Shown: positions 1,160 through 63,116 of the stretch, piece by piece
Layout of the letters: every line of letters begins with the position of its first letter
How positions within the stretch are numbered: the first letter of the stretch is position 1
From: a virus
Taxonomy: Duplodnaviria > Caudoviricetes
Virus record (IMG/VR): IMGVR_UViG_3300049926_000039
Location: 5,804 to 69,803 of that record
Reading direction: 5' to 3' (one strand)
DNA length: 64,000 bases
The notes under the pieces: generated by a model
What the model saw: only the letters and a program-made list of their open reading frames with translations
The model's database searches: none
Told to the model about the DNA's origin: nothing
Program-made: the position numbers and the translations under genes

Positions 1160-1338
1160 CGTACCTGCCCGCCGATCGCATGCTTACCCCCGCCGAGGTT
1201 GCCGAGATGTTCCGGGTGGATCCGAAGACCGTGACCCGATGGGCGAAGGCCGGCCGGATCAGCAGTATCCGCACCCCGGGCGGGCACCGCCGGTTCCGAG
1301 AGTCCGAGATCCGCGCGCTGTTCGACGGTGAGGCATGA
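1156..1338 (+). CDS. bldC: BldC-family MerR-like HTH developmental regulator
   Basis: LTPAEVAEMFRVDPKTVTRWAKAGRISSIRTPGGHRRFRESEIRAL closely matches Streptomyces BldC as recalled. Confidence 0.85.
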   Translation: MTYLPADRMLTPAEVAEMFRVDPKTVTRWAKAGRISSIRTPGGHRRFRESEIRALFDGEA

Positions 1339-28920: not shown

Positions 28921-29137
28921 GACCCCTCCGTTCGCGTCTCTCCCGAATGACCGCTTCGAGAACCGCGACGTTCTGCTGGATCTCTTCGTTGCGGCGCACG
29001 GACGGCCGGAACCGCTCGTACGTTCGGCCGATGGCCAGCGTCATCACCAGCAACCGCAGCGGTAGGCGCTCGAACGCATCGCGCAGTCCAGCGAGGTGCT
29101 CGATGTGATCGTCAGTGGTCCACTCGTCGTCAGGCAC
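28913..29137 (-). CDS. hypothetical protein
   Basis: 74 aa coupled ORF. Confidence 0.5.
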   Translation of the reverse strand: MPDDEWTTDDHIEHLAGLRDAFERLPLRLLVMTLAIGRTYERFRPSVRRNEEIQQNVAVLEAVIRERRERRGHA

Positions 29138-29513
29138 GGGTACGGCCCTCGCACCACTCGGCCGCACGGCGGAGCGCACCCTCCACCATCTCGCCGTCGG
29201 CTGCCTCGTGGTCGTTCCAGTACACGATGGCGTCGATCGGCTCGGGGTCGGACGGCCAGCCGCGGAAGTAGTTCGGCTGAGGGTCGGCGGTGAGGTAGGC
29301 GAGCAGGCCTTCCGTCGCCGCGCGGGCGCGTAGGTCCTGCACGTCGATCCGGTACAACAGCCCAGGGTCGATCGCTGCGATGATCGCACCCCACGCGCAC
29401 ATGCACCCAGTGCTGCGATCGATCAGCTTCCCGCGGGCCCACCCGTTGACGTGCAGCAGGTGGGCAGCATCGCGTAGCGTCTCGGCCGCTGCGGCGTAGT
29501 CGGTCTCAGGCAT
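29130..29513 (-). CDS. DUF6197-like protein
   Basis: LRDAAHLLHVNGWARG...CAWGAI...WND...ALRRAA. Confidence 0.65.
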   Translation of the reverse strand: MPETDYAAAAETLRDAAHLLHVNGWARGKLIDRSTGCMCAWGAIIAAIDPGLLYRIDVQDLRARAATEGLLAYLTADPQPNYFRGWPSDPEPIDAIVYWNDHEAADGEMVEGALRRAAEWCEGRTRA

Positions 29514-29754
29514 GGGGATCGGTTCCCGTCTCGTCGTCCGTCCCGATGGGGGGCGTCTCATCGAGTAGCACGCGTGCAAGTACGCGCGCATGACGCGCCA
29601 TGAGTTCTTGGCGCGGGTTGCCCTTCGACCAGTACGGCATGTAACTGGGCCATGCCCCGCTCCCTCGCGAGGAGAGCTTGACCAGCCACAACCTCCCGAC
29701 GATCCGCCGCGTGGAGAGTTTGAAGACGAGGGGTGGGGTCGTCGGCTCAGCCAT
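29506..29754 (-). CDS. hypothetical protein, paralogue of 29747-29965
   Basis: STRRIVGRLWLVKL...YMPYWSKGNP. Confidence 0.6.
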   Translation of the reverse strand: MAEPTTPPLVFKLSTRRIVGRLWLVKLSSRGSGAWPSYMPYWSKGNPRQELMARHARVLARVLLDETPPIGTDDETGTDPHA

Positions 29755-29965
29755 GGGTACGGCCCTCGTCTCGTTGCGCAGCGCGCCACTCCAATACCCG
29801 AGCGAGCCGGTCAACGACGACCCGCCACGGGTCGCCCTTCGACCACCATGGCATGTACTTGGTTCCGCCGTGGCCCTGCTCTGCGAGCTTCACCAGCCAC
29901 AGGGACCCGACGAGCCGCCGCGTGGAGACTGTGATGATCCGGGACTCGGACGCAGGCTCAGGCAT
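29747..29965 (-). CDS. hypothetical protein, paralogue of 29506-29754
   Basis: STRRLVGSLWLVKL...YMPWWSKGDP. Confidence 0.6.
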   Translation of the reverse strand: MPEPASESRIITVSTRRLVGSLWLVKLAEQGHGGTKYMPWWSKGDPWRVVVDRLARVLEWRAAQRDEGRTHG

Positions 29966-30362
29966 GGCCCTGCTCCTCGCACCACGCGGCGGCCTTCTCC
30001 ATGGCCTGCACGACGATGCCCTCGGTCATGTCGTCCTGGTCGTTCCACTCCTCGATGCCGGATCCGTCGCCCACGATCGTGCCGTGGAACGGCTCCGGGT
30101 CATGAGCCAGGAATCGGCACAGCGTCGTCACCGCCGACCCGAAGACCGTGTCGTGATCGATCGCACGTATGGCGGTGACGTCAGTGATGATGAAACCGAT
30201 CTCAGAGTTCCGAGCGACGATCATCGCGCCAACGGCACAGACCGTGCCCGAATGCCGTATCAGGTTCCCCTGGGCCCACCCTCGGGTGCGGATGACGTCG
30301 GCGCTGGCGCGGAGGGTGTCGGCTGTCTCGGCAGCGGTGGCGGGTTCGAGATGGATGTTCAT
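29958..30362 (-). CDS. DUF6197-like protein
   Basis: LRASADVIRTRGWAQG...CAVGAM...WND...AMEKAA. Confidence 0.65.
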   Translation of the reverse strand: MNIHLEPATAAETADTLRASADVIRTRGWAQGNLIRHSGTVCAVGAMIVARNSEIGFIITDVTAIRAIDHDTVFGSAVTTLCRFLAHDPEPFHGTIVGDGSGIEEWNDQDDMTEGIVVQAMEKAAAWCEEQGHA

Positions 30363-30874: not shown

Positions 30875-30911
30875 GCCCGGTACCGTACAACGCGCGTTGT
30901 ACTAATCGCAA
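30875..30911 (-). promoter_or_regulatory. leaderless promoter with 18-bp palindromic operator
   Basis: TTGCGA-N18-TACGGT-N7-ATG; perfect palindrome GTACAACGCGCGTTGTAC at 30885-30902. Confidence 0.65.
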
Positions 30912-31012
30912 GGGGGCCTTTACCGAGACGACGATGGCCTCACCCGTTGGACCGGGGAGGCCATCAACTACCTGTCGTCTGTCCCGATAAAGACCGGCCG
31001 TCAGGCGCCTAC

Positions 31013-31654
31013 CTACCGCCGAGGATACCGGGCCGCGCGGAACCCCGAACGCTGAGCGGTGTACAACATCCCGACCATGGCGTAGTCGTACGCCTCCGAC
31101 CACGCGTCGTCGTACTCGGGCCGCCACTCCTTGCCGGCGGCGTCGTGCAGCGTCTCGAACAGGATGCGCTTGACGGCCAGGTACTCGCCCACCGTCGCCC
31201 CCCGGATCGACCCGTCCGGGCGGTGGAACGCGGCGTGCGAACGGCCGAACGTCGCGAGGTGGGTATCGAGGATCGCCATCGACTCGGCGTCAGCTGGGTC
31301 GTACGTCTGAGACAGGGCGACCAGGGCGGCCAGCAGTTTGTCCCGCTGGCGCTTGCCCGGACTGTCGGTCTCCACCTCGGTAGCCGCGACCAGATCGGCG
31401 GGGAACAGCGCGGCAAGGCTGGGCGCGAAGTCGAGCAGGCGACGATAGAACTCGCGGACGGTGTCGTCGCCGTTGTCGCCGAGCAGGGCGATCGAACGGC
31501 GGAGCAGGTCGTTGGTCGTCAAGACGTTCCCCGTTCCCATGCAGTGCGGGCAAGGTTCCCTGGCGGCGGGCGTGTCAAGGGCGTGGACCCCCGAATCGGT
31601 CAGCGGGTCGGGGGACGGTAGCGGAGCGTCGGCGGTGCCAGTCGGCTCGGACAT
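31013..31654 (-). CDS. single-domain globin with N-terminal CxxCxGxG motif
   Basis: EFYRRL (B10 Tyr), ALFP (CD1 Phe), QRDKLLAAL (E7 Gln), FGRSH (F8 His), W...DAW..AYD; CPHCMGTG; RBS AAAGGAA. Confidence 0.8.
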   Translation of the reverse strand: MSEPTGTADAPLPSPDPLTDSGVHALDTPAAREPCPHCMGTGNVLTTNDLLRRSIALLGDNGDDTVREFYRRLLDFAPSLAALFPADLVAATEVETDSPGKRQRDKLLAALVALSQTYDPADAESMAILDTHLATFGRSHAAFHRPDGSIRGATVGEYLAVKRILFETLHDAAGKEWRPEYDDAWSEAYDYAMVGMLYTAQRSGFRAARYPRR

Positions 31655-31706
31655 GTTCGGTTCCTTTCGTCGGAAGGGCCACACGGTCGACTCCTCACAG
31701 GTCGGG

Positions 31707-32360: not shown

Positions 32361-32765
32361 TCACAACAGCACGCTCCCCAGAAACCCGCAGAACAACAGC
32401 AGGGTCAGCGCGGTCAGCGAGCCGAGCACGTACGCCAGAGTCGCCGACTCCCAGGTGTACCGGTCGGGCGGGGGGCGGTCCGGGATCTCGGCGGTCAGCA
32501 CGCGGTCCATCTCGGCGAGCTCCTGCGCCCGCACCCACGTCCTGATCAGCAGCCGGGTGTCCCCCGGATCCATCCTGCGCAGGTCGGCCAGCGGGATGCC
32601 CGACCGGATGGAGAACAGTTCGAGCTCGGCGCCGGGCCGCAGCATCCGCTCGGTGTCCGTCAGCGTGCGAGGGTCGGCGCGGATCAGCCGCACAAGATCC
32701 CGCTCTCGCCACTCGGCGAGGGGCGACCGTCGGGGCGGCCGACTAGATCTGACATGTTCCTGCAC
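32361..32765 (-). CDS. hypothetical protein with C-terminal TM helix
   Basis: RBS GAGGAGG, 134 aa. Confidence 0.55.
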   Translation of the reverse strand: MQEHVRSSRPPRRSPLAEWRERDLVRLIRADPRTLTDTERMLRPGAELELFSIRSGIPLADLRRMDPGDTRLLIRTWVRAQELAEMDRVLTAEIPDRPPPDRYTWESATLAYVLGSLTALTLLLFCGFLGSVLL

Positions 32766-33183
32766 GGGTACGCCTCCTCGGGTTGTGGTGATCGTTGGCG
32801 AGATCTTCACCCGCAAGCGCGCCATCCCGAATGGCCGCACGCTCCGCAGCTCGAGCAGCGGAGCGATCGGGCAGCCAACGGATCGGCACCATCACGCCGG
32901 TGGACTGCCGCATCCACCACTCATCGTCGGGATCGGTGAGGTGCCGCGACCCGCGCACCTCGGGCTCGTTCGAGATGCCGTAGTAGATCGGCCGCAGCGT
33001 CGTCGCCCACAGGTAGCAGTACAACAGGTGGGGCACATCGGCGCGGACCGGACGGCGGACGGGCAGCGCCCGGGGGGGCGGTAGTTGCTGCACCGCATCC
33101 TGCGCACGCCACCTGGCGATCTGCACGATCAGGGCCAGCACCAGCCACGCGGTGAGGGTGAGCAGAACGAGTCCGAGCGTCAT
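32743..33183 (-). CDS. N-terminally membrane-anchored GIY-YIG nuclease
   Basis: TM helix then LLYCY...IYYGIS...RGSRH...AERAAI...LAN. Confidence 0.65.
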   Translation of the reverse strand: MTLGLVLLTLTAWLVLALIVQIARWRAQDAVQQLPPPRALPVRRPVRADVPHLLYCYLWATTLRPIYYGISNEPEVRGSRHLTDPDDEWWMRQSTGVMVPIRWLPDRSAARAAERAAIRDGALAGEDLANDHHNPRRRTRAGTCQI

Positions 33184-33419
33184 CGGGCCCACATCGCAGC
33201 CACCGCGGCTGCCATGCCACCGGCCATGCCCATCAGTCCGGACACGATCAGCAGCACGTCCACCGACAGCGAGTCCGCACCCTGCCGGTGCATCCACGCC
33301 CACATGCACCCGACCAGCACCATGAAGCCGAGGGCGGTCAGGGCTACGGCGGCACCCATCCACCGGACGACCCGGCGCTGCACGACGAACTCCGTCTGAC
33401 CCCGGGTGCTGTGACTCAT
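33180..33419 (-). CDS. small two-TM membrane protein
   Basis: 79 aa, ATGA coupling. Confidence 0.6.
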   Translation of the reverse strand: MSHSTRGQTEFVVQRRVVRWMGAAVALTALGFMVLVGCMWAWMHRQGADSLSVDVLLIVSGLMGMAGGMAAAVAAMWAR

Positions 33420-33805
33420 GACGGCCGCCACTCCTCGCGGTATCCGGGCTTATCGGCGTACGGCAACGCGCGTATCTTGACGGCGGTCAACAGGCCGTAC
33501 GCCTCGCCCGCAGGCGCCTCGCGGTGCAGGTCGTAGTAGGTCCGGGCTTGTTCGTACTCGTCCAATAGCCGTCGGTCGGCGGCCACCTCGGCCAGCACGC
33601 GGGCCGGGTCCCAGCGGGCGATGTGCACGGGATTCACCTTCGACCACGGCCCGCCACTGAAGCCTTCCGAGACGGTGAGGCCCTGGTCGTAGGAGTGCAC
33701 GTCCTCGCCGGACCTGCTCACCGTCCACGGGCCCGGCGTCGCTCCCCGTGCCACCCGCTCGTCCTCATCGAGCTGGGCGCGCAGCCAGGTCACCAGGCCG
33801 TTCAT
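33416..33805 (-). CDS. DUF6221-like protein
   Basis: WLRAQLDEDERVA...HIARWDPARVLAEVAADRRLL...ALPYADKPGYREEWRP. Confidence 0.75.
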   Translation of the reverse strand: MNGLVTWLRAQLDEDERVARGATPGPWTVSRSGEDVHSYDQGLTVSEGFSGGPWSKVNPVHIARWDPARVLAEVAADRRLLDEYEQARTYYDLHREAPAGEAYGLLTAVKIRALPYADKPGYREEWRPS

Positions 33806-34191
33806 CGCGGCATCGCCACATACGCGAGGGCCAGCAGGGCGACGCCGGCGACCAGCACCCCGTGCCACCACATCGGGCGCGGGGGGCGGCCGGTCGCGAG
33901 GGCCATCTGCCGGGCCTGCACCCCGGTCACGGCGTAGGTCGACGCCACATAGGCGAGCAGGGCGAAGAACCCGAGGGATGCCGCCGCGAACGCGATGGTG
34001 CGGTGGTCGACGTGGAACCACATCCACGCGCACCCGATCGCGACCAGGACGAATCCGACAGCCCACGGAATCCAGCCGCCGAACAGAATCAGGTAGGCGT
34101 GATCGTGCCCGACTTTCCGGTTCGCGGCGAGACGGCGGATCTCGCGGTCGTGGGTCCGCCGCTCGGCGGAGCTGACATATCGGCGGGCCAT
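33802..34191 (-). CDS. membrane protein (possible Spd-like spread protein)
   Basis: three TM helices, downstream of tra genes. Confidence 0.55.
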   Translation of the reverse strand: MARRYVSSAERRTHDREIRRLAANRKVGHDHAYLILFGGWIPWAVGFVLVAIGCAWMWFHVDHRTIAFAAASLGFFALLAYVASTYAVTGVQARQMALATGRPPRPMWWHGVLVAGVALLALAYVAMPR

Positions 34192-35164: not shown

Positions 35165-37345
35165 TCACGCACCGTGCGTGCGCGGGCCCGCGATGTACGT
35201 GAGCAGGTAGTGCCCGCGCACGCCGTCCCGCTCGATCGTGAGCCCCGGAGGCGAGACGAACTTGCCCTCATCGCACAGTCCCGTGAACCGCTTCGAGATC
35301 CACGACTCGGACGGCTGGACGACCATCTCGGCCACCACGTCCGCGTTCGTGAACCGCATGACCTTGCGCTCGGCCATCCTGACCAGCGCGGCGTCGAACT
35401 CGGCCACCGCGTGCTCGGGCGACGACGGGCGGGGCTTCAGTCCCGGGCCGTCCAACTCGATGTTCTGGCCGTCACCGAGCGGCTCGACCGGCTCGCGCGG
35501 GTCGCCGTACTCGGCGCGTTCCTCCGCTGTGGGCGCGGCCGGAGCATCCGGGTCCAAGTCTTCGCCCAGGTCGTCGCCGTCGAGCTCCATCGTTTGCTGC
35601 ATGTCGGTCCCTTCGCTTGCGTTTGCGCTGGTCACGGTCGTGACAGCGGGCTCTGCGTCGTCCTCGCCCTTCGCGCCGAACATGACCGCGGACGGGCGGC
35701 ACAGGTTCCACACGGGGCCGAGCACGCTGATCTCCTCATCGGTGAAGGTCGCCGGCGTGAACGTGGTCCGCGCCTTGAGCACCGCCTCGCGAAGGTCGCC
35801 GTAGTCCTCGCGGGTCTCGTAGGTGCGGCAGTCGATCGGGTACCGGGTCGGGTCCACCCCCGGCGCCTTGTCGAGGTAGTGGGCGCCCGGGACGCTGGCC
35901 GCGAACTGTTCGGCGTTGGCGCCCGCCTCGCGGGTCTCGTCCGAGATGACGAACGCCGAGTCATAGTCCTGCGTGATCCCGAACTGCTTCCACGCGCCGA
36001 CCGCCGCGCGGACGTCGGTGGACAGCGCCGTACCGACCGCGCGGGGCAGGGTGATCGACAGGCGGAAGCCGAGCGAACGGCCCTTGGTGGCCAGCCACTC
36101 GAAGTTCGCGCCCTCCTTCACGATGTCGAACTCGTCCGCGAAGATGTAGATGAACGGCATGCCCGTCGTGTACGCGGCGGCGGCGTTGAAATTGCGGTAT
36201 CCGCTCAGCGCGTCCGCCCGGTATTTGCCAAGCCTGCGCAACGCAGCGAAGAGCGCGAGCGACTGCGCACGCGAAGCCGAGGCGAGCGTGCACATGTCCA
36301 GGCACCATCCTGCGTTCTGCATGATCTTCGCTTGGTCGATGTAGATGGCGACGACATCGGTTCGCGAAAGAACCTCCGCGATCTCGATCGCCGCGTCGCC
36401 CGACTTCCCCGAACCGGTCATGCCCTGTCGACCGAGGAACACGTCGTTCGGGGAGCGAAACTTCGGTGCGACCCGGGAGCGAAGTTCGTCTGGGGTTCGC
36501 GCGAAGGAGAACCACTGCGGCGCCCCGTCGGAGTAGTACGCGGTGCGAATCGGCGCAGCGAAGCTTTCGCCCGGGTGAGACAACCCCGGCCACGGGCGCC
36601 ACGTCTTGTGCGGGTCGGTGTGCACGAGGCGAATCTGCGAGGTCCCGCCGCGTTCGGCGGGCACGATCGAACTTCGCCCGCGAATGATTCCGGGGTTCTC
36701 CTCCAGCGCGGGCAACGCACTTCGCAGTTGCGAGATCGGTACGCCCGTATGGTCGATGGTCGCGGTCACCGCGAACTCGTCGCCGTCGATAGTGTTCGCG
36801 CGGATGCGTGCGCCCTTCGGCCACTTCAGCAGGTCCGCCAGGCCGCCGCCCTCTTCGCCCGAGCTGGTCGCCGCGCGGAACGCGTCGATGCGGTAGAGCA
36901 GCCACGTCCCCGCGAAGAAGATCGAGCACAGCAGGTAGATCACCGCAGCGGACGCGGGGACCGTGAACACGTCCGCGATCCGGTTCCACCAGTGCGGCCC
37001 AGTCCGGTGCCAGCCGAGGATTACGCCGATCGAGACGGCCACCGCGAACGCCTCGATGGTGAGCGCGACGTGCCAGATCACGAACGGGATCCGCTTGGTC
37101 ACCTTGTGGCCGATGCCCAGCGCCACCCCGGGGCCGACCGTGCCGAACAGGAACAGCGACAGCCAGACCATCATCCACTTCAGTTCGGGGCTGAAGAACA
37201 GGAAGAACCGCAGCACGATGACCAGGGCGGGGACGCCGAACAGGGCCGTGAGCAGCACCGATAGGAACGGCTGTGCCCGGTCGTCGGGCTCCCGCTTGCG
37301 GGGGTTCCGCTCGCTGGTGACGTTGACGTTCGATGTCCGGCTCAC
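35165..37345 (-). CDS. traB: TraB-family FtsK/SpoIIIE conjugative DNA translocase
   Basis: N-terminal TM helices, Walker A GMTGSGKS, Walker B IFADE, C-terminal winged helix (SESWISKRFTGLCDEG...GHYLL). Confidence 0.85.
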   Translation of the reverse strand: MSRTSNVNVTSERNPRKREPDDRAQPFLSVLLTALFGVPALVIVLRFFLFFSPELKWMMVWLSLFLFGTVGPGVALGIGHKVTKRIPFVIWHVALTIEAFAVAVSIGVILGWHRTGPHWWNRIADVFTVPASAAVIYLLCSIFFAGTWLLYRIDAFRAATSSGEEGGGLADLLKWPKGARIRANTIDGDEFAVTATIDHTGVPISQLRSALPALEENPGIIRGRSSIVPAERGGTSQIRLVHTDPHKTWRPWPGLSHPGESFAAPIRTAYYSDGAPQWFSFARTPDELRSRVAPKFRSPNDVFLGRQGMTGSGKSGDAAIEIAEVLSRTDVVAIYIDQAKIMQNAGWCLDMCTLASASRAQSLALFAALRRLGKYRADALSGYRNFNAAAAYTTGMPFIYIFADEFDIVKEGANFEWLATKGRSLGFRLSITLPRAVGTALSTDVRAAVGAWKQFGITQDYDSAFVISDETREAGANAEQFAASVPGAHYLDKAPGVDPTRYPIDCRTYETREDYGDLREAVLKARTTFTPATFTDEEISVLGPVWNLCRPSAVMFGAKGEDDAEPAVTTVTSANASEGTDMQQTMELDGDDLGEDLDPDAPAAPTAEERAEYGDPREPVEPLGDGQNIELDGPGLKPRPSSPEHAVAEFDAALVRMAERKVMRFTNADVVAEMVVQPSESWISKRFTGLCDEGKFVSPPGLTIERDGVRGHYLLTYIAGPRTHGA

Positions 37346-38439
37346 GTGCTCACCCCTACCTCTGGCGCAGCGCCGTTGACGTGCTGGTCGGGGGCGGCCG
37401 GCGGGGTGAATTCGCCCAGCGTCAGCCCGTGCCGCCTGCGGTAGTCCTTAACCCATAGCTCAATGGAGCGCTTCGACTTGCCTACCTCCTTGGCGAGGTC
37501 GGCGGCACGCTCACCACCCTCGACCACCCTGCGGGCGAAGACGTCACGGCGGTCCCGATCTCCGTCCTTACTGCCCCGTTCCGGGAAGTTTGGGCGGGAA
37601 TCTCGCGGCGGTGGGGCCGACGCCACGTCTACAGACGGCGGGCGGATCTCCGCCTTAACGCCGCGGGGCATGGGGGCACGCCGTTGCGGCTTCAGCCCGC
37701 CGATTAGCCGACGGTTGTAAATCGGATGCTCAGCGTCGACCAGCACGCGCTCAGCGATCAGGGCATCATCGAGAGTCGGGTACGGCTCGAAAGTCCAGCG
37801 CACGACCAGGGGGAACCACTCTGTTGACTGCGCTTTGTGGGACCGCACGCGCGCGGGAAAGTCGGCAGTCGAACCGATGTACAGCGGCGGGATGGGGTCC
37901 TCCCCGAGCGCGCGGTAGACGCCAGGCTGCCTCGCGCCGAGATCCAGATCGACCGGGACCCCTGCCGCAACGCTCGCCTCCGCCACGACCTCCACCGGGT
38001 CCGGCTGGATCGACCGCCGTCGCCGCTTCAGCTCGAAGAGGCACATCGACGTGACAACAATCAGGCCGTCCACCGACAGCGGGAGGAGGTGCGAATACTC
38101 TTCGCCGTACCGCGAAGCGACGGCCGTCATATGCCAGTACGAAACCCAGGCAGCGACCGCCCCGACGACGCCCGCAGCAACGTAGCGAATCGCCGAGGCG
38201 AGCGAACGGCCGGCGGGCATGTACGACAGGAACTCGACCACAGCGAAGAACGCAAGCGGTGCCCAGGCGGCAATGACCCTGCCCACGAGCGAAGGTTGGG
38301 CGTGCATCGCGTTCGCGAAGACGGACGCCGCGACGCCCGCCGCCAGGCCGAAGCGAACCGCCCAGACGAGGGCGCCACGGGGGGACGCGGCCCCGCCGAT
38401 CTTCGCATCTACAAGCTTCGCTTCGCTCCTGGTCTTCAT
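37342..38439 (-). CDS. DUF2637 (SpdA-like) membrane domain + GIY-YIG + HTH fusion
   Basis: VAASVFANAMHA...AWVSYWHM...LPLSVDGLIVV; GVY...LYIGST...RVRSH...IAE...PIYN; C-terminal AADLAKEVGKSKRSIELW. Confidence 0.75.
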   Translation of the reverse strand: MKTRSEAKLVDAKIGGAASPRGALVWAVRFGLAAGVAASVFANAMHAQPSLVGRVIAAWAPLAFFAVVEFLSYMPAGRSLASAIRYVAAGVVGAVAAWVSYWHMTAVASRYGEEYSHLLPLSVDGLIVVTSMCLFELKRRRRSIQPDPVEVVAEASVAAGVPVDLDLGARQPGVYRALGEDPIPPLYIGSTADFPARVRSHKAQSTEWFPLVVRWTFEPYPTLDDALIAERVLVDAEHPIYNRRLIGGLKPQRRAPMPRGVKAEIRPPSVDVASAPPPRDSRPNFPERGSKDGDRDRRDVFARRVVEGGERAADLAKEVGKSKRSIELWVKDYRRRHGLTLGEFTPPAAPDQHVNGAAPEVGVST

Positions 38440-38508
38440 GGTTTCGCAGAGTACAGGAGGCACGCGACTTGCGCGACTAACGACACTTGGTATGGCAAGA
38501 TGGTTCGC

Positions 38509-38778
38509 ATGAGCAGCGAAGCGAAGGACGCGGCCCCCGAACCCCGCGAAACGATGACGACCGAGCAGGCAGCGAAGATCCTCGACACGTCGCGTGCGAC
38601 GGTGATCCGTCTCTGCGAAGCGGGGGCCATCGAGCACCGGTGGACTTCGCCCGGGACCGGCCGCGAAGATCGCAACGGGCATCCGCTTCGCGGTCACCGC
38701 CGTCTGTACGCGGATTCGGTGCGCGCGTACGCGGGTCAGCGGGACGCTCCGACGACCCCCGAAGATTCGTCCGCCTGA
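38509..38778 (+). CDS. excisionase/BldC-like HTH regulator, divergent from transfer operon
   Basis: MTTEQAAKILDTSRATVIRLCEAG...GHRRLYADSV. Confidence 0.75.
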   Translation: MSSEAKDAAPEPRETMTTEQAAKILDTSRATVIRLCEAGAIEHRWTSPGTGREDRNGHPLRGHRRLYADSVRAYAGQRDAPTTPEDSSA

Positions 38779-38811
38779 CACCCTTGACACTTAACCGATT
38801 TCGGTTAACGT
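38776..38811 (+). promoter_or_regulatory. repeated early promoter with palindromic operator (copy 1)
   Basis: TTGACA-N16-TAACGT overlapping TTAACCGATTTCGGTTAA. Confidence 0.8.
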
Positions 38812-49333: not shown

Positions 49334-49923
49334 ATGACCAAGATCCCACTACCGACCAGCAGTGAACGTGCCCTCGCCCAGGCCGAAGCCGCCGCAGACC
49401 GACGAGTAGCCGTCCCGCAGGAGTACTACACGGCCGAGCAGATCGGCGAGGGCGTCTGGGTGGCGCTGGCCGCCTGCCGCGACGAGGACCCCGAACTCTT
49501 CCACCCCATCGACGGCTCGCCCGTCGCCGTGGCCCTCGCCCAGACCATCTGCGCCGGATGCCCCCGTCACCCGAGCCTGCCGCGCCTACCGCTACGCCCA
49601 TCGGCGCGTCCGGGGTGTGGGGCGGCGTCTACTACGCGACCCACTCCGCCGGCGTCCGCAACGCCCGCATGAAGTGCGCCCTCATGAAGTGCCTGAACGG
49701 GGTACGCCGCACCAACCCGTATTGCTCGTTCGCCTGCGAGCACAAAGCCAAGGCCGGAACCGACGCCGGGTACCGGATGCACCTGGACGAGATCAGCCGC
49801 CTGCGCAAGGCGGGACAGGACGTACCCGACGCTGTGAAGATCTGTCCGCCGTGCGCCGCGGCGAAGGAAGCCCGCTCCCGGCAACGCATGCCCAACCGGC
49901 CAGACCTGCGGGTCGACGCCTAA
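49334..49923 (+). pseudogene. whiB: WhiB-family regulator interrupted by two apparent 1-bp C insertions
   Basis: AACRDEDPELFHP...ICAGC in one frame, GVWGG in another; removing one C near 49561-49565 and one near 49589-49590 restores CAGCPVTRACRAYATPIGASGVWGG. Confidence 0.75.
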
Positions 49924-62183: not shown

Positions 62184-63116
62184 ATGATCCGTAAACTGCT
62201 CGCCACCGCTGTTGCGTCGGTGCTGCTCGGTACCGTCGCCCTCGCCTCGCCCGCCGCTGCGTCGAACCCGTCCGGGCTTCCGTGGCGCTCCGGTGCCTAC
62301 ACCTACGACTTCACGGCGTTCGGGACGTGGCGCGGCCATACCGTGGACACGAACCTGCAGTACTCGGATCGCGGATCATGGGGTGGCATCGAATACCCGT
62401 GGATGCTGGATTTCCCGCCAGCTCCGGGAGAGCTGGTCATCGCTCAGCCGTTCTGGCCGCAGAGGTCCGGCGGGACCCTGTCCAAGTGCGCGTCGGGTAG
62501 TTACGACACGCATTGGCGCCGGTACGGCACGAATCTGGTCGCGGCGGGGTTGCCGTCGATGTTGACCGAGCTGGCGTGGGAGATGAACGGCAATTGGTGG
62601 GAGTGGTCGGCAACCAACACGACCAGCTACATCAACTGCTGGCGCAAGGTCGTCAACGCGGTCCACGTGACGGCCCCGAACGCCCGGTTCCTGTGGACCA
62701 TCAACGCGCACACGCCTGGGGTCGGCGGGAACCCGATGAACGCCTACCCGGGCGACGCGTACGTGACGGAACTGGGTATCGACGCCTACGACCACTACCC
62801 GAAGTCGACCACGGACGCGCAGTTCACGGCGCAGGCCACCGCCGTCGCGGGGATCACCTGGCTGAAGGATCAGGCGGTCGCGCACGGCAAGAAGTGGTCG
62901 GTTCCGGAGTGGGGTGTCTCCAACCCGGTAAGCCCCGACTACGGTGGCGATAACGCGTTCTTCGTGTCGAAGATGCAGGACACGTTCCGGGCGAACCTGG
63001 CGACGATCGACTTCGAGTCGTACTTCGACGCTGAGGACTCGGAGATCTTCGATACGTCCTCGGGCTGGTCGAACCCGAATGCGGCATCGGCGTACATCGC
63101 CGGTCTGCACCCTTGA
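62184..63116 (+). CDS. secreted glycoside hydrolase family 26
   Basis: signal peptide AAA-S; LAWEMNGNWW (acid/base Glu), YPGDAYV..LGID.YD, VPEWG (nucleophile Glu). Confidence 0.85.
   Translation: MIRKLLATAVASVLLGTVALASPAAASNPSGLPWRSGAYTYDFTAFGTWRGHTVDTNLQYSDRGSWGGIEYPWMLDFPPAPGELVIAQPFWPQRSGGTLSKCASGSYDTHWRRYGTNLVAAGLPSMLTELAWEMNGNWWEWSATNTTSYINCWRKVVNAVHVTAPNARFLWTINAHTPGVGGNPMNAYPGDAYVTELGIDAYDHYPKSTTDAQFTAQATAVAGITWLKDQAVAHGKKWSVPEWGVSNPVSPDYGGDNAFFVSKMQDTFRANLATIDFESYFDAEDSEIFDTSSGWSNPNAASAYIAGLHP

Follow-up and report, generated by a model that had tools for sequence, protein, structure and literature searches.

The locus described here raises the question of what a globin could do for a phage. 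We analysed a stretch of 64,000 nucleotides (the window), which corresponds to bases 5804-69803 of the 69.8-kb IMG/VR virus record IMGVR_UViG_3300049926_000039, an uncultured tailed phage (Caudoviricetes) whose genome was rated 100% complete by CheckV. On the minus strand of the window, the globin gene spans positions 31013..31684, stop codon included, and its translation gives a protein of 223 amino acids from a GTG start or of 213 from an alternative ATG at 31654. The protein joins a short cysteine motif, hereafter the knuckle, to a globin domain without a reductase. Our preferred reading, to which we give a probability of about 0.45, is that the phage globin binds oxygen (O2) and converts nitric oxide (NO) to nitrate, and that it is re-reduced by reductases of the host in the manner of Cgb-type globins.

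The translated open reading frame (ORF) matched the Pfam Globin model PF00042 with 30.7 bits against a cut-off of 22, over residues 68-191 and model positions 2-112 of 117, and its homologues likewise exceeded the cut-off. A phmmer search of solved structures returned plant non-symbiotic haemoglobins and a flavohaemoglobin. The AlphaFold model, computed with 21 homologues, contained seven helices and had a mean predicted local distance difference test score (pLDDT) of 86, rising to block means of 92-98 between residues 51 and 210. Through VIA-align, we found that this model superposed on neuroglobin with Z 17.4 and a root-mean-square deviation of 2.0 Å over 140 residues, on Hell's Gate globin I (3s1i) with Z 17.3 and 130 of the 131 residues of 3s1i aligned, on yeast flavohaemoglobin and Campylobacter Cgb (2wy4) with Z 16.0 each, and on thermoglobin 7dih with Z 15.7; Foldseek against the PDB agreed with these globin matches. 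VIA-align, Foldseek and conservation placed a 3-on-3 globin domain at residues 54-216 (31037..31525, minus strand). Pfam searches found no flavin adenine dinucleotide (FAD) or nicotinamide adenine dinucleotide (NAD) domain in the globin ORF or in the 87-residue ORF downstream of it. The globin ORF stops 18 residues past helix H, and the NCBIfam flavohaemoglobin model NF009805 gave 20.5 bits against a cut-off of 432. The original prediction, made from the DNA letters alone, had called a globin without a reductase domain, and both parts of that call were borne out by the Pfam scores, the confident model and the Z values of 16-17 to solved globins. By sequence and structure prediction, these results confirm that the gene encodes a real 3-on-3 globin of the flavohaemoglobin-like (M) lineage that lacks a reductase.

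In the 223-residue numbering, the predicted haem pocket is formed by Y80 (B10), F94 (CD1), Q113 (E7), L117 (E11), Y168 (G5) and V171 (G8), together with the proximal histidine H150 (F8), which lies within FGRSH and is encoded at 31235-31237. Four of them, Y80, F94, Q113 and H150, are the residues by which the globin had originally been recognised. We aligned 172 members of the family, which had been preselected for a CxxC about 100 residues ahead of the proximal histidine, so that the invariance of the knuckle cysteines C45 and C48 among them follows from the selection. The results showed that H150 was present in all 172 members, Y80 and F94 in 171 each, Q113 in 169, Y168 in 167, and L117 and V171 in 164 each. 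These results suggest that a pocket of the NO-dioxygenase type is kept under strong selection in phage globins, and the protein of the window most likely binds haem b. Globin folds without haem do exist, the N-domain of RsbR being an example, and the gene might in principle encode such a protein or be a decaying passenger with no present function; with the proximal histidine in every aligned member, the whole pocket retained in 129 or more clusters (50% identity), and an intact ORF whose GC content at third codon positions (GC3) is a coding-type 0.88, this looks extremely improbable. Very unlikely, too, is a haem sink or carrier without gas chemistry, which would starve haem enzymes, avoid haem toxicity or oppose some haem-dependent function of the host: a haem-binding fold that stands alone, with no redox partner, would suit such a role, but the near-invariant B10, E7, E11 and G8 residues would be needless for merely holding haem.

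The size and distribution of the family were determined by several searches. A word-indexed search recovered 58 homologues with 45-69% identity, all from metagenomes or metagenome-assembled genomes, and many of them bear the Joint Genome Institute name 'hemoglobin-like flavoprotein'. By exhaustive profile search, there were 129 clusters (50% identity) at E ≤ 1e-30, and 237 when the threshold was relaxed to 1e-10. A CxxC was present in 172 of the 184 candidates retrieved, and at least 10 of the remaining 12 were short fragments. Three proteins, P0131 (2461 amino acids), P0166 and P0187, were rejected as members; they are multi-globin cellular proteins without a CxxC that had been ranked by their summed domains, and proteins of this kind include one with 14 globin domains and another with CheW plus three domains. 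In 50,697 sequenced phage records, tblastn with the window's globin (E ≤ 1e-5) and with the distant member P0173 (E ≤ 1e-2) found no match, the viral structure library BFVD gave nothing at E ≤ 1e-3, and PHROGs held no family for the globin, in keeping with the earlier remark that globins are not standard phage genes. No relative turned up in a pattern scan of 185,579 species genomes, the scan being of limited sensitivity with its single peptide pattern, and a plasmid search returned only ordinary flavohaemoglobins and single-domain globins with 24-28% identity, actinomycete flavohaemoglobins being the best of these hits. At this limited search sensitivity, the family is apparently confined to phage-like DNA. 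Globins are well studied, yet our literature search found no paper describing a phage or viral globin family, nor any globin with a CxxC or zinc motif. A soil-virome survey lists 'hmp' among viral auxiliary metabolic genes without analysis (PMC12304974); the entry is an annotation label only and is silent on the family, the knuckle, the missing reductase and the phage-only distribution. This large family thus appears to be undescribed, with only survey-level 'hmp' listings in print.

We then compared the phage globin with known systems. Aligned by hhalign with the globin domain of actinomycete flavohaemoglobins, the family reached a probability of 98.3% and E 1e-14, with 35% identity over 130 columns. 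These flavohaemoglobins, represented by WP_328384182.1 of Micromonospora zamorensis and WP_338704020.1 of Streptomyces sp. Q6 (both encoded on plasmids), are the closest cellular relatives found. They have the same B10/E7/E11/F8/G5/G8 pocket as the phage globin, and the motifs FY..L, LFP, QRDKLL.AL, GRxH, Y..V and WS.AYD..M are common to both. They are about 385 amino acids long and carry FAD_binding_6 and NAD_binding_1. The phage globin lacks both domains and differs further in having the knuckle, a CD-E segment of greater length, 8 extra residues between helices F and G, and a basic tail at the C-terminus. Among structural neighbours in the ESM Atlas, an actinobacterial NO dioxygenase cluster ranked first, with a template modelling (TM) score of 0.75. 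From the hhalign match and the ESM Atlas neighbours, the phage family appears to derive from the globin domain of actinomycete flavohaemoglobins or to be its sister. Membership in the sensor (S) lineage outside the M lineage was rejected: the Protoglobin model PF11563 gave no match, no further Pfam domain was found in the window's globin at E ≤ 1, there is no transmitter domain, and the best relatives are of the flavohaemoglobin type.

Among solved structures, Cgb (2wy4), Hell's Gate globin I (3s1i, matched by the family profile with E 4.5e-6), Aquifex thermoglobin (7dih) and Vitreoscilla haemoglobin are likewise stand-alone 3-on-3 globins with Tyr-B10 and Gln-E7 that need the reductases of the cell. 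Unlike the phage protein, they are cellular, only about 130-145 amino acids long, and without a knuckle, a disordered N-terminal arm or a hairpin between helices F and G; their identity to it is 15-25%. The best solved-structure match to the family profile was the Chloroflexus globin-Roadblock/LC7 fusion (3wfw, E 2e-8), which has a C-terminal Roadblock/LC7 domain and no knuckle, and the match spans only part of the globin domain, mainly helices G-H. The gene for WP_328384182.1 directly follows a nitric oxide synthase oxygenase gene. On the M. zamorensis plasmid NZ_CP107937.1 (locus L018, 3766-6188), the two genes share one base, 5025, and the pair adjoins tryptophan 2,3-dioxygenase and aminotransferase genes; judged from its genes, the locus resembles a biosynthetic cluster in which NO is both produced and consumed.

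The knuckle CPHCMGTG occupies residues 45-52 (31529..31552, minus strand) and is predicted to form a β-hairpin, with strands at 44-45 and 52-53 and a block pLDDT of 85-93, that leads directly into helix A. C45, C48, G50 and G52 were invariant among 21 close homologues. Across the 172 members, the form CxxCxGxG occurred in about 140 and CxxCG in about 31 distant ones. A single CxxC is found in the window's globin and in most members, in agreement with the single DnaJ-type motif first noted upstream of the globin; three knuckles are present in P0036, P0104 and P0139, and two in P0162. Anti-TRAP (E 0.1), RtpA of NCBIfam and TIGR02642, a phage family, were matched only weakly. The DnaJ zinc finger and anti-TRAP have the same CxxCxGxG spelling, but DnaJ has four motifs and anti-TRAP two, giving complete Cys4 sites within each chain, whereas the phage globin has one motif and no pair. 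In the Rad50 zinc hook, one CxxC per chain suffices and two chains share one zinc. Rad50 is an unrelated protein with its hook at the tip of a coiled coil, and the same sharing between chains is proposed for the single phage knuckle. We interpret the knuckle as a metal half-site because it is always present in members and a few of them add further knuckles in cis. It would supply two of four metal ligands, and most likely a Cys4 site is completed by a second copy of the protein, as a zinc-hook-like dimer, or by a partner. The suggestion that a half zinc site might drive dimerisation is consistent with the homologues that carry two or three knuckles. A haem-regulatory Cys-Pro motif was rejected, as Pro46 is found in only 78 of the 172 members.

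Other features of the protein are specific to the family. The insertion between helices F and G, F-x-R-P-D-G-x-x-R-G-A-T at residues 153-164 (31193..31228, minus strand), is predicted to form a small β-hairpin, and this hairpin was seen in both structure models, that of the window's globin and that of P0036. The segment from F8 to G5 has 25 residues in 116 of the 172 members, 8 more than in actinomycete flavohaemoglobin. At the C-terminus, the basic tail R-x-x-R (31016..31030, minus strand) is conserved at R219 in 165 and at R222 in 162 of the 172 members, and Met206 and the RPDGxxRG of the insertion are also conserved across the family. The N-terminal parts are variable. They include a disordered arm rich in Pro, Ala and Asp, and in the window's protein the linker (pLDDT <55) contains the motif DSGVH at residues 30-34 (31583..31597, minus strand), which occurs in 49 of 171 members, 14-24 residues ahead of the knuckle in 41 of them. 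In 29 of 171 members, a membrane helix follows a conserved WLWHLFNDP-type motif; the window's globin has no such helix. Extra Cys/His-rich modules stand ahead of the knuckle-globin in P0015, P0016, P0017 and P0060; these modules include a C2H2-like unit, CPRC...H....H, and C2H2-like fingers were noted in P0015 and P0060. Pfam found no known domain in the extra modules of the four proteins.

The distal and proximal pocket of the NO-dioxygenase type indicates O2 binding and NO-to-nitrate conversion as the most likely chemistry. The nearest cellular relative, a flavohaemoglobin whose gene adjoins one for nitric oxide synthase, and the NO dioxygenase cluster of the ESM Atlas also favour this chemistry. 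In E. coli flavohaemoglobin, NO dioxygenation is governed by a set of positions that includes E11, G8, E7 and B10 (PMC7948479). We propose that the phage produces the globin within the actinomycete cell that it infects, where the protein would bind O2 tightly at the haem and turn NO into nitrate. Reductases of the host would return the ferric haem to its reduced state; they are invoked because neither the protein nor the phage encodes a reductase; NAD_binding_1 had no match in five complete globin phages. Removal of NO, or buffering of O2, during infection could protect respiration and iron-sulfur proteins, dampen the NO signalling of the host, or both. In S. coelicolor, NO levels are set by an endogenous nitrate-nitrite-NO cycle that a flavohaemoglobin closes, and NO signals through DevS/DevR (PMC4766573, PMC10552308). 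NO in Streptomyces controls development and antibiotic production, and a phage NO sink could blunt such signalling. Should haem be bound and NO or O2 acted on, soil phages would interfere with gas chemistry or signalling in the actinomycetes that they infect. The family would then stand for a kind of auxiliary function new to phages, and its combination of knuckle and globin, in some members anchored in the membrane, for a new globin architecture. The globin protein is small and soluble, hence open to direct testing.

Several observations weigh against this explanation of the phage globin and its knuckle. Lys-F7, a control position of flavohaemoglobins, is replaced (G-R-S-H), as it is in the actinomycete flavohaemoglobins. 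The same haem pocket also suits O2 storage, O2 delivery or a sensing role. A membrane anchor is found in about 17% of members, and extra zinc-finger-like modules at the N-terminus in a few; both could equally point to a targeted sensor or regulator. The structure model of P0036 was not confident around its three knuckles, with a block pLDDT of 65-76.

A globin that buffers or delivers O2, like that of Vitreoscilla, would support respiration and adenosine triphosphate production in oxygen-poor hyphae or soil while the phage replicates, or would shield O2-sensitive phage enzymes, and would not act on NO. The Tyr-B10/Gln-E7 pocket also gives Vgb and flavohaemoglobin-type globins their high O2 affinity, no reductase is encoded, and the membrane helix of the 29 anchored members would put the globin at the cytoplasmic face, beside the respiratory chain. 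We nevertheless consider this role unlikely for the window's globin, which has no membrane anchor: the closest named relatives in the collections searched are flavohaemoglobins of the NO-dioxygenase type, and the delivery of O2 by bacterial globins is itself debated.

A haem-based gas or redox sensor, in which binding of NO, O2 or carbon monoxide, or oxidation of the cysteines, would alter partner binding by the knuckle, the arm or the tail and so tune infection, is also doubtful. The globin carries no recognisable output domain, its gene lacks a conserved neighbour, the sequence falls in the enzyme-type M lineage, and the Pfam Protoglobin model was unmatched. What speaks for a sensor is that the knuckle, the hairpin between helices F and G and the RxxR tail are family-specific and have no role in simple NO dioxygenation, that the N-terminal modules vary (none, a membrane helix, or the C2H2-like fingers of P0015 and P0060), and that DSGVH recurs as a linear motif. 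Where the original prediction had spoken of a redox or NO 'sensor/sink', the sensor half is weakened by the missing output domain and the flavohaemoglobin-like lineage, and a sink for NO or O2 is the more likely half.

The NO-dioxygenase reading may be extended into a speculative and rather improbable scenario, in which the family is a phage-restricted lineage derived from the globin half of an actinomycete flavohaemoglobin, and the knuckle has replaced the reductase as an inter-subunit Cys4 centre, either a zinc hook or an iron centre that passes electrons to the haem. Such a protein would reset host NO/O2 signalling, and hence development and antibiotic production, when phages infect filamentous actinomycetes.

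To see in what company the gene occurs, we examined 16 globin loci including the window, 10 of which are IMG/VR viral contigs. All 16 were phage-like and fell into four unrelated neighbourhood types. In type A (the window and two relatives), the order was a TraB-like gene, small genes, the globin and a DUF6197 gene. In type B (eight contigs), the globin lay a short way upstream of genes for a T4-type terminase and a Mu-type portal, as a Pfam check on L006 showed. Type C had ERF and AAA_25 beside the globin and a GH25 lysin or endonuclease VII nearby, and type D had RusA and DNA methylases beside it. No neighbour gene was common to all four types. The globin thus comes without a dedicated phage partner gene and acts on its own.

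The globin was originally proposed to be co-transcribed with transfer genes. In the window, the globin shares its strand with the TraB-like gene but lies 3.5 kb downstream of it, and a very stable hairpin follows the globin stop codon. In most other phages of the family, the globin stands beside terminase/portal, ERF or RusA/methylase genes with no TraB near it, indicating no functional tie to transfer, and the co-transcription proposal was not upheld. The TraB-like protein itself (726 amino acids) matched NCBIfam NF041214, the model of a plasmid transfer protein of Streptomyces, with E 5e-60, below the cut-off of that model, and lies in a module at 35165-38790 (minus strand), in which a DUF2637 membrane protein gene (37342-38790, minus strand) precedes it and overlaps its start by 4 nucleotides. 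By these matches, the two genes form a putative conjugation-type module of actinomycetes within a complete tailed-phage genome.

A link to a WhiB protein fared no better. The WhiB-like gene (49334-49700, plus strand) lies 18 kb from the globin on the opposite strand, and a WhiB match was found in one of five complete globin phages, which rules out a WhiB partnership as a general feature. Its match to the Pfam model is limited to positions 1-35 of that model, and the expected CPV...C and GVWGG motifs lie in the other two reading frames; from its frames, the gene seems to need two +1 frame changes, due to assembly indels or to decay. The lysogen setting assumed at the outset also found no support: neither a tyrosine nor a serine integrase was found in six complete globin phages, namely the window's phage and five others. 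A plasmid-like, extrachromosomal prophage state is possible for the window's phage.

The reading frame of the globin gene was analysed at both ends. The GTG start at 31684 is preceded, 6 nucleotides upstream, by the hexamer GAGGAG (31691..31696, minus strand), which resembles a Shine-Dalgarno sequence and may serve as one. The ATG at 31654, which had been chosen originally, has AAGGAA upstream. The GTG start is the more likely one, because it yields an N-terminus, MWPFRR, that agrees with MWPFRKR in the homologue P0036 and with an [FWM]RR motif seen in many other homologues. GC3 over codons 1-48 was 0.79, against an overall GC content of 0.67. The public gene call of the source record (P0002, 175 amino acids) and the ESM Atlas entry begin at Met49 (codon 31540-31542), within CMGTG. 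This call splits the conserved knuckle and is almost certainly too short. Public gene calls that cut the N-terminus through a conserved motif may partly explain why the family has escaped recognition.

Beginning about 18 nucleotides past the globin stop codon, a long, very stable RNA hairpin (30915..30995, minus strand) resembles a terminator or a 3'-end stabiliser. A 151-nucleotide fold had a predicted energy of -74.5 kcal/mol and z -4.68, and none of 200 shuffled sequences was as stable. In L002, a syntenic relative, the corresponding position after the globin is taken by a 12-bp GC hairpin (z -2.3). A scan for promoter and terminator consensus sequences, in which a T-run was required, gave nothing useful near the globin and did not report the 30915..30995 hairpin. 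The hairpin after the stop codon, in the window and in L002, suggests that the globin gene closes a transcription unit. Between the hairpin and the next gene lies a perfect 18-bp palindrome, GTACAACGCGCGTTGTAC (30885..30902, no strand), which occurs once in the window, against 0.01 occurrences expected by chance.

The window as a whole has a GC content of 67%. Its plus strand carries a full virion module with terminase, portal, protease, major capsid protein and tape measure protein, followed by a block of minus-strand genes at about 28.7-38.8 kb that contains the globin, and beyond this block by a plus-strand replication module encoding ERF, a methylase, a beta clamp and a DnaB helicase. The major capsid protein shares 31% identity with its counterparts in Mycobacterium phages, such as Optimus. 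When 20 kb of the window was compared with the 50,697 phage records by megablast, no match was found, and a pattern scan of species genomes with the phage DnaB helicase also gave no match. An ORF at about 1180-1338 (plus strand), which reads ...LTPAEVAEMFRVDPKTVTRWAKAGRISSIRTPGGHRRFRESEIRAL..., is, we presume, closely similar to the Streptomyces developmental regulator BldC. Together with the WhiB match and the TraB-like and DUF2637 genes, this ORF makes a filamentous actinomycete the probable host.

Around the globin, we observed two DUF6197 paralogues, a DUF6221 protein and a weak DUF6303 match; the flanking genes of these families are at 29130-29789, 29958-30362, 33416-34066 and 33180-33431, all on the minus strand. 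Gene calls at 32.3-33.4 kb are uncertain, and an ORF at 32743-33363 (minus strand) with a weak GIY-YIG nuclease match (E 0.0024, below the cut-off) overlaps other candidate ORFs. Towards the far end of the window, an ORF of 310 amino acids (62184-63116, plus strand) matched glycosyl hydrolase family 26 with E 1.8e-7, which is unusual for a phage; by this match, it may encode a lysis or cell-wall enzyme.

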